Origin: Escherichia coli
GTDB taxonomy: Bacteria; Pseudomonadota; Gammaproteobacteria; Enterobacterales; Enterobacteriaceae
Reading direction: 5' to 3' (one strand)
Assembly (NCBI RefSeq): GCF_030013205.1
Contig: NZ_CP122648.1
Length of the DNA stretch: 64,000 bases
Positions 17,701 to 29,700 of this stretch are shown in pieces. Within the stretch, counting starts at the first letter, position 1; each line of letters begins with the position of its first letter. The position numbers are program-made.

Positions 17701-20700
17701 CATACATCACGCTGGTAGCTACCGCTTTAACGCGGGTATCCATCGCCGCGTCGTTTAGCGCCATGCCGCCCCAGCCACAAATACCGAGCAGCCCGATACG
17801 GTTGCGATCTACCTCTTTTTGCAGCCCTAAGAAATCCACCGCCGCGCTGAAATCTTCAGTGTTGATATCCGGTGAGGCGACGTTTCGCGGATAGCCGCCG
17901 CTTTCCCCGGTGTAAGAAGGATCGAACGCCAGGGTAACAAACCCTCGTTCCGCCAGCGTCTGCGCATACAAGCCGCTGGATTGCTCTTTCACCGCGCCAA
18001 ATGGCCCACTGACCGCAATCGCCGCCAGCTTGCGATCGCCACGGTCTTTAGGCAGGTAAAGATCGCCCACTAAGGTGATGCCATATCGGTTCGGGAACGA
18101 GACTTTACGGTGATCGACTTTCTGGCTCTCGGCGAACGTTTTATCCCATTTATCTGTCATGGACACAGGGGCATTAGGATTGGTTGAATCAGCATAACTC
18201 ATTGTCGTGACTCCACTTAATGATGCGAAAAGCAGCATGGTCGGCATCGCGGTTTTTAGCGTGCGGGTGAAGGCTTTCATAAAAATCCCCATAAAAAACA
18301 ACAGAGAGATACAGGTTTCCGACGGACAACGCTGCGGTGCTTTACTTTGATGGGGTCATTATAGTGAGCAGAATTAGTGCTGATTAGGGGGCGATTAATG
18401 CTAAGATTAATACCATATTGTTATAAATTAATGCGGAGATTGCCGGCATGAAGGGGGGATGTTTCAATGGCGAAAAGGGAGAACTACAACGAGCTGTACC
18501 TGTTTATGCAGGTGGTGCGGGAAGGCAGCTTTACCGCAGCGGCTCAGCGGCTGGGTCTTGCTCAGTCAGGAGTCAGCCGTTCTGTTCGCGAGCTTGAAGA
18601 AAGGCTGGGCGTCCAGCTGCTAGTGCGCACCACGCGTAAACTGTCGCTGACACAAGCAGGCGAGCAGCTCTACCAGAAGACGGCATCTGGATTTGAAATG
18701 TTAGATCTTGGGCTTGCCACGCTGGCGCACTATCGAGAGACGCCCTCCGGCACGGTGCGTATCAATGCCAGCCAGCACGCGATTGATAAATGCCTGCTGC
18801 CAAAGCTGGCGGTATTTAAACAGAGATATCCTGATATCCGGCTTGAACTGATAAATGAGAGCCGGTTCGTCGATATCATCGAGGAAAGATTCGATGCAGG
18901 TGTCCGCCTGGGGCCTGAAGTCGGCCAGGGTATGGTCGCGGTACGCATCACGCCCGATATGGAGATGGCAATTGTGGGGACTCCGGAACATTTTCGTCGC
19001 TATGGTTTTCCGCAAACCCCGGCGGATTTAAAGGCGCATCCCTGTATCGCCTATCAGTTTGCCGACGGCAGCGTATACCAGTGGGAACTCAATCAGGATG
19101 ATAAAAAAATCACTCATCGCCCTGAAGGGCAATGGGCCCTATCCGACAGCTATATGGAAGCAGAAGCCGCCCGGCTGGGCCTCGGATTGGCCTATGTTCC
19201 TGTTGAACTGGTCGCGGATGATTTAGAACACGGTAAGCTTATCAGGGTGTTGCAGCGTTACAGCCTGCGAATGGAGGGATTGTTTCTCTATTACCCTCAT
19301 CGCAACGTCTCCCCCGCCCTGCGGATGGTCATTGATACATTGAAAATCTGAACGTTAACAACGACCGACTCTTTACTGTGCAATATTGTGTCAGGTAGTC
19401 CCTCTGCGTTCAATTCCAGGGTCTGCTTTGAGCGAGAAAGAGAGGACTATCCAGCAATGGAGATCACCCAAAAGAAAAAACCACCTGGCTCCCTCGACAA
19501 CCTTCATCCGGGCATTGAGCCTCAATCAACATTTTTATATCTGTCAGGTTACTTCATTATGAAAACTGATCATCATCGTTGTTTTTGTTGCAATAGTAGA
19601 ATACGCGTATTTATTCCTCCATCTCTATTAATAACGGCAATAAACTGTTCACTTCACTGATATTTAAAATATGTATCCTTTTCAAGCTGTTCAGCGGCGT
19701 AAGAAAAAGTATTGATTATGAATTCGACGATTTAACCATTTCTGGCTGATTGGTAATCATCTGTGATTAATGCTGGTCTATTGATTACGCCAGCACCCTC
19801 TCTAGCTTATTCACCGCCGCCACATACTTCGCCGGATTTTTATCTTTCAGCACCGCCAGATTACGTTGCTTCCAGCGAATAGCCGGAAGATGCTGAATTT
19901 CAGGATAGCGATACCGCGACCAGTCAGGGCTGTTTTGCTTAAAACTGAGCAAGAACTCGCGATCCAGATCCGTAAGATGTGACTTCAACGCCTGCGGCAG
20001 CAAAGTCGTTACTGACAGCAGCGATTCCAGCGACGTTTCCTGCTGAGTCATCCCCGAAAATTCCTGAGCATACAGCGTCGTGATCCGCTCTATATCCCAG
20101 TTTGGGGCCAGCAACTCGGCAATGGGGCGGGGATGGCCTGCCAGATAACAAAGAAAACCGTCAAAGATCTCCCGCATCAGTCCCGGTTTCTCCAGCATAT
20201 TCAGCACATCAAACAGATCGCGCGGGTGCTGACGATCAAGCGCTGCGCAGATTTTACCGCCATAAAGATCCGCCAGCGAGACGACACTCATGGTGGTGAA
20301 GCCATACTCCATTTCCACACGTTCGCACACAGGCATTTCTGCCGGAGGCAACAACAGCCCGCGCCAGACCGGGCTAACCTCGATCTTAATCTTTGCATCA
20401 GCGGTATTCACAATGATGCGCTTTTCATCCGCTTTATTTTCCTGCCGAATCGCGGTGATCCCCGGTCTGCCGTTCAGCGATGCAGTAATCCTCTTCAAAG
20501 CGTCGTTGATAGCCGCCAGATCAGTATCGCGATCCGCAAAGCTCTTATACGCCAGATCAATATCCACCGACAGACGGGGAAAATCCTGCACAAACAAATT
20601 GATTGCCGTGCCGCCTTTCAACGCGAAACAGGACTCCTTCGCCACATGCGGCAGAGCAGCCATCAACAGCTTAACCTGCCGGGCATAACTATCACGCAGA

Positions 20701-26700: not shown

Positions 26701-29700
26701 ATGGCGAAGGTAAAACTCGAGGCAATTTGTCTATCCTGAAAAAATCAATGGCTACAAATCAGGCCTGTTGCAATGTTGAGATTGATTCTGATAAAGCTGA
26801 TTATGAATATGTTTATTATTTTTTAAAGACACAATATGATGAGCTTCGCCAGCTATCTTCCGGTGTTAGAAAAAACCTTAATTCTAACGATATAAAAAAC
26901 TACCCTATTCGTTTGCCATCCTCTCTGGACGAACAACGAAAAATTGCCTGTGTATTAAAAGTATTAGATGACAAACTTGCTCTCAACAACCGCATCAACG
27001 CCGAACTGGAAGCGATGGCGAAAACGCTGTATGACTACTGGTTTGTACAGTTTGATTTCCCTGATGCCGACGGAAAACCGTATAAAACCTCCGGCGGTAA
27101 GATGGAGTATAACGCCACGCTGAAACGGGAAATTCCGGCGGGGTGGAATGACTCCATTCTTGGTAAGTTTATTGAGTTAGATCGTGGCGTTACTTATAGC
27201 AAAGAGGATGTTCGAACTCAGGATGATAAAGATACGATAGGCATTCTTCGCGCTACAAATGTGACGGGAAATAATGTTGATATTGATGATTTAGTCTTCA
27301 TTCCTTCTAGTAGAGTAAACGTTAATCAAATGCTAAATAAATTTGACATATTGATCGTGATGTCAAGTGGTAGTAAGGAGCATGTAGGGAAGAATGGCGT
27401 GTATTATTTCGAAAAAAAACATGCATTTGGCGCATTTTGTTCAAAAATTACACCCGTCAGAAAATACAGATATTTTATAAATACATTCCTGCAATCGAAA
27501 TGGTTTAAGTCTTATATAAACAATCAGTGCTTGGGAACTAATATTAATAACCTGACCAATACGCATATCACTAATTGTGAAATCATATGCCCCACTCCTG
27601 ATGTTGTGGCGTTATTCGAGAATAAAATGATGCCAATTTATAATAAACTGGCATCAAACACTCAAGAGAATAGTCATTTAATCCAACTCCGCGACTGGCT
27701 CCTCCCTCTACTTATGAACGGACAGGTCACGGTCAAATAATCCCCGGCGTGGTTTTGCGAGGCGCATTCCAGATCCGCATTGCGCCGCACTCACCGCAGC
27801 AAAACCGCTTGCCGTTCATAACCGATCGCAGTATCTTTCTCCCGCGCCTGCAAAATCAGGCGTCGGGATTAGCCTCCTGAAAACCGTTACAGGCGACACT
27901 TGACGCACCAGCGTCTTTTTTGTGTCGTGCGTTCGGCTACACCTCAATGGCGGGCCGGGCGGGGGCGTCGCAAGACGCGCCGGTTTCCTGTAACGCCGGT
28001 AAGGCTAACCCCGTCCGGTTCCGCCCCCATGAGATTAGCCTCTCTAGTGGCGGACATAATAAACCGTTACAGGAGACGCCCTATGGCTACAATCCTCATC
28101 TCTGACTGCGATTTACTCGATCTATTGTCCGCTCCCTTCAATGCCACCACGGATTTCACCGTCCTGGCCGACTACTGCGCCCGCTTCGCCGAAACCCTGA
28201 TAGAAACCGACGATCCGGCGCTGCGGCTGGCGCTCTGCGGACGGCTTCACGCGGCTCTTGCGCTATTGCAACCCACGCTGCACGACCCCATCCCGCCGCA
28301 TCTGATTGAAAGCCTGACCGTTGATACCCTTCCCGCCACACCAGAGCACTTTATTTCCGAACCAGATTCCTTGTGCGAATACTGCCTCGCGCTGCTCCAG
28401 CTACTGCTGGAACGTCCAGCAGAGCCAAAAACGGAACAAACCCTGACCGGGCTTCTGTGTGAGCTGGTCTGGAATTTCACGGAAGGACTCAAATCCCCGC
28501 GCTGGCTGCGTACCGCCGACGGCGTAAAATTTATCAGTGAGGTGGCCGCATGATGCAACAGGACTGACATTCCGCCAACATTATTGCGGTGCTGAAAAAG
28601 CGGGGAACGCCTCTGGCGGCACAGAGAAAAACTCATTGCGGAAGCGCTGTAAATATCGCCAGAAATCATCTGGTCCTCAAGGTACTTTGATAGCAAAGGC
28701 AAGCAGGCTGGTTCAGTCCAGTGTTTCTCTTCTTGCATTTTCAGAAATGGGAGGCTGGGAGTCTATCGAAATGGTTCGTCGATATGCTCACCTTGCACCT
28801 AATCACCTTACCGAACACGCACGGCAAATAGACTCAGTCCTGAACCCATCGGTCCCAAATTTGTCCCAGTCAAAAAATAAGGAAGGTACTAATGATGTGT
28901 AACTTATTGATTTAAATGGTGCCGATAATAGGAGTCGAACCTACGACCTTCGCATTACGAATGCGCTGCTCTACCAACTGAGCTATATCGGCCCTGAAAG
29001 GACATGTTCACGAACGTGAATCACGGTGGACAAGGTTAAAACTAACCGGGCGATGCGTCAATGGCCTTGTGAATCAAATGGCTACTTTTGCATCACCCGG
29101 TTTTATTTACGCACGAATGGTGTAATCACCAATGCCGATCCACTTGTAAGTGGTCAGTGCTTCCAGCCCCATTGGGCCACGCGCGTGGAGTTTTTGTGTG
29201 CTTACCGCCACTTCCGCACCCAGACCAAACTGGCCGCCGTCGGTAAAACGCGTAGAGGCGTTAACGTAAACAGCGGACGAATCCACTTCGTTAACAAAAC
29301 GCTGGGCGTTGCGCATATCGCGAGTCAGGATCGCATCGGAGTGTTGCGTGCCGTGTTCACGAATATGGGCGATGGCATCGTCAAGATCGCTGACGATTTT
29401 GACGTTCAAATCTAATGACAGAAACTCATCGTCATACTCTTCCGCTTTAACAGCCACCACCTTCGCGGGGCCTGTCTGCAACTGCGCCAGTGCACCTGCA
29501 TCAGCGTGTAACGTCACGCCACTTTCCGCCATTTGTTTGCTTAATGCGGGCAGGAAACTATCGGCGATGTTTTTATTCACCAGCAACGTTTCAACCGTAT
29601 TACATGTGCTCGGTCGCTGAGTTTTCGCGTTGACGATCACTTTTAATGCTTCAGCGATCTCCGCGCTTTCATCAACGTAAATATGGCATACGCCTATACC

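Follow-up and report, generated by a model that had tools for sequence, protein, structure and literature searches.

Among the genomic islands described in Escherichia coli, the one that corresponds to the locus considered here is GI-thrW, which in the ST131 strain EC958 encodes the type I restriction-modification (R-M) system EcoMIII; knockout of this system abolishes N6-methyladenine (m6A) methylation at RTACN4GTG (Forde et al. 2015, PMC4659465). The insertion site has also been catalogued as hotspot #33, lying between yagP and proA at tRNA_Thr_CGT, and that study counts 555 islands at the site (275 with defence systems), confines AbiEii to hotspots #5, #33 and #37 and lists AbiEii islands at #33 with the mobile-element class 'None' (Hochhauser et al. 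2023, PMC10121019). Here we describe a block at the tRNA gene thrW in a 64,000-nucleotide stretch of E. coli DNA (assembly GCF_030013205.1, contig NZ_CP122648.1), referred to below as the window. The block is an already known and ordinary feature (GI-thrW, EcoMIII, hotspot #33), and we take the segment 19796-28898, with a probability of roughly 0.85, to be a decayed copy of GI-thrW, a composite relic left by repeated use of the thrW attachment (att) site.

The limits of the island, and its length of 9.1 kb, come from comparison with strain 2021CK-01784, in which the thrW site is empty and reads LysR gene, ykgR fragment, yagP fragment, ~110 nt and thrW. Homology between this strain and the window runs up to 19795 and starts again at 28899. 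Homology with K-12 is lost at 15751 on the left and is likewise back at 28899 on the right, 18 nt past the 3′ end of the tRNA. Several porcine enterotoxigenic E. coli chromosomes match the region at 100% identity, and at least 80% of the segment 19300-29100 is held by 539 of 5426 complete E. coli genomes (~10%). A first-pass annotation of the window had read the block as a defence island at the thrW hot spot, and in its core this reading is right: the DNA was acquired horizontally, sits at that hot spot and carries two known anti-phage systems within a decayed element. It is missing from the empty-site strain and from K-12 and occurs in about a tenth of complete genomes. The genes that had been placed in it (abiEii/abiEi, hsdR-hsdM-hsdS, an acidic open reading frame (ORF) and the 3′ end of an integrase gene, followed by thrW) are all present at or near the positions given for them. 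Two sizes needed correction, the acidic ORF having 156 rather than 157 aa (it is called ORF156 below) and the integrase remnant 67 rather than 64 codons.

Evidence for a composite origin is found at the tRNA-proximal end. The integrase remnant there (204 bp), the stop codon of which lies 15 nt from the 3′ end of thrW, had been taken for the element's own integrase. Against this, blastn searches of a phage collection show it to be 98% identical to the 3′ end of the int genes of SfV, SfI, SfII and phi458 and, from 28698, 91% identical to that of SfIV over a longer stretch; phages of the SfV, SfI and SfII type integrate into thrW. Moreover, the remnant is fused inside a truncated Ner-like gene, itself 64% identical (tblastn, E=1e-12) to the intact 80-aa neighbour of ORF153, an ORF156 homologue, in a related locus (L003). 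In intact relatives the ner gene is translationally coupled to the ORF156 homologue. A phage int 3′ end fused inside a truncated island gene is, to judge from this junction, the signature of a deletion by which the island lost its tRNA-proximal end along with an SfV-like prophage. Since it is fused inside the Ner-like gene, the int remnant is best assigned to a separate prophage, of which it is debris, and not to the defence island as its integrase.

The opposite end has also suffered. In ST131 and in strain 463 the far end of the island holds a 440-aa integrase pseudogene, a duplicate of the int remnant with an att copy and a junction to yagU. The duplicate comprises the int remnant plus 45 nt of the tRNA 3′ end (253 bp, 90% identity), and the 440-aa integrase is 22-24% identical to IntF, P4 Int and the integrase of islands at asn-type tRNA genes. 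In strain RM9088 only the last 75 codons of the 440-aa integrase are left, beside a full yagP-like LysR gene. Compared with RM9088, the window has lost a further 2.8 kb that held the integrase C-terminus, LysR2 and two more genes, one for an SDR and one hypothetical, and the junction of this window-specific deletion falls at ~19790-19795, with a 4-bp overlap at 19790-19793 relative to RM9088. The left edge of what had been called a compact block is thus a deletion scar, with attR, the integrase and some native flank removed.

An attR-like repeat of the thrW 3′ end, which had been suggested for 19.4-19.8 kb, is absent. A search with the 32-nt tRNA 3′ end at up to 3 mismatches did not find it, and blastn-short with the 94-bp att/tRNA segment yields, across 15000-28850, no match longer than 12 nt, which is chance level; the repeat is missing because the far end has been deleted in the window. 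Of a functional integrase with attL and attR repeats, as an intact element would have, the window shows only the 67-codon int remnant, with no second att copy in 15000-28850.

From these observations a history of the block can be proposed. The island proper would have been made up of an abiEi-abiEii pair, a cargo slot with an hsdR-hsdM-hsdS operon of the EcoMIII lineage, and a P4-type module in which an isrK/seqA-like leader and a C4/CI-like antisense RNA accompany ORF156 and a Ner-like gene. Later, integration of an SfV-like prophage at thrW would have been followed by a deletion that joined the last 67 codons of its int to the truncated ner. The far end would also have lost its 440-aa integrase and attR copy by deletion, along with a piece of the native flank that held an SDR gene and a yagP-like LysR gene. 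Having lost integrase and attR, the block should be immobile on its own. The proposal of a decayed element made in the first-pass annotation survives in this form, integrase and att copy having been lost, whilst the rider that it kept only its defence cargo does not, the P4-type RNA region and ORF156 having been kept as well. The features of the region are collected in Table 1.

Table 1. Features of the thrW island and its flanks, in window coordinates
Feature	Coordinates	Strand	Description and source
LysR gene	18467-19351		Left neighbour of island
ykgR-like fragment	19563..19631	+	Native left flank, just outside island; PGAP annotation of 100%-identical record
abiEii	19785..20705	-	306 aa; DUF1814 nucleotidyltransferase toxin of AbiE
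abiEi	20692..21474	-	260 aa; antitoxin and transcriptional regulator of AbiE
Exchangeable cargo cassette	21702..27807	+	hsdRMS here, 6.1 kb
hsdR	21758..24856	+	1032 aa; type I restriction subunit; PADLOC REase_I
hsdM	24850..26487	+	545 aa; N6-adenine methyltransferase subunit; PADLOC MTase_I 1011 bits, full length
hsdS	26493..27740	+	415 aa; specificity subunit; PADLOC Specificity_I
Leader RNA, c4-a1b1/isrK (P4 seqA-like) element	27831..27921	+	Rfam
C4/P4-CI-type antisense RNA	27943..28031	+	Rfam C4, full model
Second target pair	28035..28075	+	a2 28035-28041, b2 28065-28073; direct reading and script
ORF156	28083..28553	+	156 aa, acidic, pI 4.4
Ner-like HTH_35 regulator remnant	28608..28706	+	Residues ~38-70 of 80; truncated at both ends; PGAP pseudogene
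SfV/SfI/SfII/SfIV-type phage integrase 3′ end	28698..28902	+	67 codons; blastn, PHROG integrase hits
thrW, tRNA-Thr(CGT)	28917..28992	-	Integration target, attL side; ARAGORN, Rfam, K-12 comparison

Some of these features are additional to those in the first-pass annotation: the non-coding RNA genes (27831-28031), the Ner-like remnant (~28608-28706) and the ykgR fragment (19563-19631). The last of these has a diverged paralogue (~90% identity) near the start of the window, at about 285-401 and 1072-1224, which is presumably the true ykgR locus. To the left of the island, between it and paoD, a block with genes for an MFS transporter, an alpha/beta hydrolase and the LysR protein (15752-19351) has no DNA homology in the K-12 locus, where only a yagP fragment is present; relative to K-12, the variable region thus begins at 15752 and not at 19559. 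At the other side, RM9088 has another prophage (lytic transglycosylase, DUF2213; locus L008, 18400-24100) to the right of the int remnant, in the position that thrW occupies in the window. If this prophage sits at thrW, the site is still in use, although no copy of the tRNA gene was found within L008. A second int remnant in the abiEi-hsdR intergenic region, hinted at by an 18-nt repeat, was considered and rejected: only an 11-nt exact match is left, attributable to chance.

The two defence systems are well preserved at the gene level. In the AbiE pair, abiEi sits upstream of abiEii with a 14-nt overlap, the bicistronic arrangement of such systems. AbiEii matches its PADLOC profile over the full length (E=3.9e-116) and Pfam PF08843 (E=7.5e-36) and has intact KGGT30, DIDL48 and RDLFD162 motifs; AbiEi matches PADLOC at E=4.6e-79 and the Pfam families AbiEi_3_N (E=1e-28) and AbiEi_3 (E=3e-35). 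The two proteins are 96.5% (AbiEi) and 97.0% (AbiEii) identical to those of EC958. With a toxin domain and its motifs, and a two-domain antitoxin encoded upstream, the pair is by its predicted proteins an AbiE system, which is to say a type IV toxin-antitoxin of the abortive-infection kind. By the behaviour of the family, AbiEi would repress the operon and neutralise the AbiEii nucleotidyltransferase, and AbiEii freed during infection would bring about growth arrest. In strain 463 (locus L007, 9909-10690) abiEi is frameshifted and abiEii annotated as intact, which is unexpected if the toxin is active.

The R-M genes form three consecutive ORFs, overlapping or abutting, in the order hsdR, hsdM, hsdS. 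Motifs are intact in both HsdR (PD...ExK at 119, GSGKT at 316, DEVH at 426) and HsdM (DPSAGSG at 234, NPPF at 312), and identity to EcoMIII of EC958 is 98.6% for HsdR and 96.5% for HsdM. The earlier identification of the abiE and hsd ORFs as AbiE and type I R-M homologues is upheld by both PADLOC and Pfam. HsdS is less uniform. Its N-terminal target-recognition domain (~26488-26937) has a GC content of ~36%, and the DNA of 26488-26937 has no homology to EC958, strain 463 or RM9088, the three other hsd-type loci compared; the protein can be aligned only from residue 87 onwards. Going by the family and the EC958 orthologue, an M2S1 complex would methylate a bipartite target set by HsdS, and unmodified incoming DNA would be subject to ATP-driven translocation and cutting by HsdR, as is usual for the family.

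This R-M block can be replaced as a unit. In 259 complete genomes (for example strain 98200) a UG5 RT-nitrilase of 1069 aa (PADLOC DRT, 1034 bits; locus L009, 10633-14000) stands in place of hsdRMS between the same flanks, and this type of island shares the left deletion scar, the abiE pair, the RNA module, ORF156, the ner remnant and the int remnant with the window. Homology between the two stops at 21701, in the abiEi-hsdR intergenic region, and restarts at 27808, 23 nt before the RNA leader. As defined by these breakpoints, the hsdRMS block is a swappable cassette. Taken together with the unrelated recognition domains of hsdS, the cassette swap suggests that the block keeps exchanging cargo and specificity by recombination, though unable to excise.

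Between hsdS and ORF156 is a non-coding stretch of 340 bp. Searches against Rfam identify here an isrK element (68.0 bits; gathering score 50), which also matches the c4-a1b1 model just under its gathering score (43.8 bits against 46.7), followed by a complete C4 RNA (71.8 bits; gathering score 45). The leader holds the sequences a1 (27869-27875) and b1 (27885-27893) and, according to a terminator scan, an intrinsic terminator at 27902-27921. Two loops of the C4-like RNA, b′ (CCTGTAACG, at 27987) and a′ (AGGCTAA, at 28002), are complementary to these and to a second pair of targets, b′ matching b1 and b2 over 9 nt and a′ matching a1 and a2 over 7 nt. The b2 sequence overlaps the Shine-Dalgarno sequence AGGAG (28071-28075), 8 nt upstream of the ORF156 ATG.

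Comparison of the module in five loci (the window, L003, L009, L010 and L011) reveals that the loops differ in the other four (b′ CCGATAAG and CAGTGAG; a′ ATGCCAA and GTTCCAA) and that both target sites change accordingly. In L003 only the a′ pairing amounts to 7 nt at both targets, the b′ pairing being 7 nt at the downstream target and 6 nt at the upstream one. In all five loci b2 lies on or just before the Shine-Dalgarno sequence, and the RNA stems are maintained, with compensatory change in 3 of the 29 stem pairs. This three-way covariation between loop and targets is good evidence, from sequence comparison, that the RNA is functional and element-specific. Phage P4 yields the same pair of Rfam matches, isrK and C4, in the same order over its seqA-cI region. 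With an RNA of this fold behind a leader, and loops that face two pairs of targets, the region is by its sequence features an antisense-RNA immunity region of the P4/P1 type. The C4-like RNA would pair through a′ and b′ with a1/b1 in the leader and with a2/b2 at the ribosome-binding site of ORF156, and by analogy with P1 (c4 with icd/ant) and P4 (cI) this pairing would keep ORF156 and ner off.

A coding sequence (CDS) annotated by PGAP as 'ash family protein' (27947-28105, plus strand) lies wholly on the gene for the C4/CI-like RNA and extends over the ORF156 start. It is probably a mis-called RNA gene, and the 'transcriptional regulator' hits of 'ash' in PHROG are probably due to this RNA having been translated in many annotations of phages.

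The protein encoded by ORF156 has homologues in more than 600 clusters in Enterobacterales, none of them named. It has no match in Pfam, PHROG, PADLOC or NCBIfam, its only match in the phage collection is one unannotated 1.5-kb record, and hhalign shows no relation to P4 epsilon or to ORF151 (probability 0.1%). An AF2 model (pLDDT 86) consists of a four-helix bundle and a beta-hairpin, and this fold matches only generic helical bundles. More can be learned from its surroundings. Islands at asn- and ser-type tRNA genes begin with the tRNA, a P4-family integrase (50% identical to P4 Int), an Integrase_1 gene preceded by an EFASI RNA, and a Ner-like gene, and continue with ORF153, the C4 and isrK RNAs and variable cargo. 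Directly upstream of the RNA leader this cargo is in some cases a set of RHS/PAAR toxins and in others a Lactamase_B/trypsin-CTD4/MComp1/AAA system. The called or annotated genes of the asn/ser-type loci (L003-L006, L010 and L011) include no alpha, sid, delta or psu. Because the context of the module is constant across these islands, ORF156 is best read as a conserved backbone gene, regulatory in nature and held off by the antisense RNA, and not as defence cargo. In the literature, the C4 and isrK profiles have been remarked to pick up relatives of P4 CI and seqA in phage-inducible chromosomal islands (PICIs; PMC10111431), and beyond this remark we found no description of the EFASI, C4 and Ash backbone as an island family.

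A number of points weigh against the reading of the block as a decayed GI-thrW copy with the history set out above. The order of events, with the island first and the SfV-like phage later, is one that we infer by parsimony. If the asn/ser-tRNA islands are a guide, the integrase that belonged to the island could have been a P4-family int, since lost, that lay between ner and thrW, and not the 440-aa gene of the far end. HsdR and HsdM fall under the curated cut-offs of TIGR00348 (258 bits against 284.55) and TIGR00497 respectively, so their lineage is divergent from the classical type I families, and the N-terminal domain of HsdS is unlike that of EC958, so that a target other than RTACN4GTG is to be expected. 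As for AbiE, we know of no E. coli member for which phage defence has been shown. A quite different account would make the defence genes the cargo of the very element whose int remnant abuts thrW, an SfV/P22-like phage decayed to its int and its morons. The remnant is indeed directly adjacent to ORF156 and the ner remnant and co-oriented with them, and C4/isrK-type RNAs can occur in lambdoid prophages, the isrK family being named after a Salmonella small RNA located in the Gifsy-1 prophage. However, the SfV-type homology begins abruptly at ~28698 inside the truncated ner, with no xis or other phage gene following, the ORF156-ner module of intact relatives is found in non-phage islands with P4-family integrases, and the second, diverged int remnant and att copy of ST131, with a different integrase at the far end, point to separate insertion events; we therefore regard a decayed phage of this kind as highly improbable. 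It is scarcely credible that the block belongs to the core chromosome, handed down vertically and unconnected with integration at thrW. Such a view would account for the lack of a flanking direct repeat and of an intact integrase in the window strain, and for a GC content near that of the neighbouring genes in all but hsdS, but it is refuted by the empty thrW site of 2021CK-01784, and the restriction of the block to ~10% of genomes, the att copy and integrase pseudogene of ST131 and the published status of the site as a hot spot all speak against it.

Within the preferred reading, that of a decayed GI-thrW copy, the place of ORF156 can be argued in two other directions. It might be a defence or anti-defence effector and thus part of the cargo: it is small and acidic (pI 4.4), like many anti-restriction proteins, and always adjoins variable cargo. 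We think this unlikely, as ORF156 is conserved (58-88% identity) whilst the cargo changes entirely, from hsdRMS to the RT-nitrilase, RHS toxins or the AAA/trypsin system. It is also always translationally coupled to the Ner-like regulator, behind C4/isrK RNAs with co-varying targets, in the position of the early regulatory genes of P4, and has neither a PADLOC match nor a fold more specific than a generic helical bundle. The other direction goes further than the backbone reading. The isrK/C4-ORF156-Ner module might constitute the RNA-gated switch of an undescribed, P4-derived family of 'integrase-only' tRNA islands in Enterobacterales, with the slot upstream of the RNA leader as a dedicated site of cargo exchange. 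In this scheme derepression or the sensing of a helper would fall to ORF156, and the islands would sort into immunity groups by the differences in their a′/b′ loops. We offer this tentatively, as a possibility that we would not at present bet on.

To the published island at its published hot spot the window adds one more allele, set apart by additional deletions and by a recognition domain of HsdS that is new. It serves as a worked example of how an immobile defence block is left behind when a single tRNA gene undergoes integration and deletion time and again, of the reason for not assigning an integrase fragment to cargo simply because the two adjoin, and of how a conserved RNA gene ends up annotated as 'ash family protein'. 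The only aspects that might repay further work are the RNA-controlled ORF156-ner backbone and the swap between hsdRMS and the RT-nitrilase. If the RNA-gated switch were true, it would provide a mechanism for the regulation, and perhaps the mobilisation, of 'unclassifiable' defence islands across the pan-genome of E. coli.

Set beside known systems, the island shows varying degrees of likeness. Among the classical R-M families its best solved relative is EcoR124I (type IC), with HsdR proteins of 1032 and 1038 aa, respectively, and similarity extending over nearly the full length of HsdM (E=5e-33). The similarity is nonetheless distant, at only E=4e-26 for HsdR; that of HsdM to EcoKI is E=2e-7, and the NF046051 model (EcoAI family) reaches 31 bits where its cut-off is 550. 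We assign the system to none of the families IA-IE. The island also has the gene order R-M-S, unlike type IC systems, in which the order is M-S and R is transcribed separately. With CP4-6, the 34.3-kb prophage which, as had been noted at the outset, K-12 carries at thrW (262898-297205), the island shares the att site, of which a 70-bp segment is repeated at the far end of CP4-6, and the placing of an integrase at the tRNA-distal end (intF in CP4-6, the 440-aa int in ST131). In contrast, the island has no homology to CP4-6 beyond the att/tRNA segment, IntF is only 22% identical to the 440-aa integrase, and CP4-6 has no Rfam match at gathering score besides the tRNA and the att copy, and hence no C4/isrK module.

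The immunity regions of P4 (seqA-cI-seqC) and of P1/P7 (immI, with c4, icd and ant) resemble that of the island in having targets in two places, as a pair within the leader and a further pair where the first downstream gene begins, and in a loop-target covariation that implies element-specific immunity. The downstream genes of the island are, unlike those of P4, unrelated to epsilon or ORF151, and no alpha, sid, delta, psu, epsilon or P4-family integrase is present among all of the island ORFs, so that by the usual gene set the island is not a P4-like satellite. The 'integrase-only' islands of hotspot #33 have in common with it the integration site and AbiEii, and some of the entries there have the mobile-element type 'None'; the part of the survey considered here makes no mention of an RNA immunity module, of an ORF156-ner backbone or of cassettes being exchanged (PMC10121019).

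The closest correspondence is with GI-thrW of EC958, where thrW is followed by the int remnant, ORF156, 'ash', hsdS, hsdM, hsdR, abiEi and abiEii. The pseudogene of the 440-aa tyrosine integrase comes next, ahead of another int remnant that carries an att copy, and yagU lies beyond. Integrase pseudogene, second int remnant and the att copy of the far end are all missing from the window, which has the LysR gene and the ykgR fragment as left neighbours in place of yagU and encodes an HsdS with an unrelated N-terminal recognition domain. The two share the locus, the gene order, the orientation from thrW to abiEii and the junction between int remnant and ner, and their ORF156 is the identical protein (WP_000201175.1).

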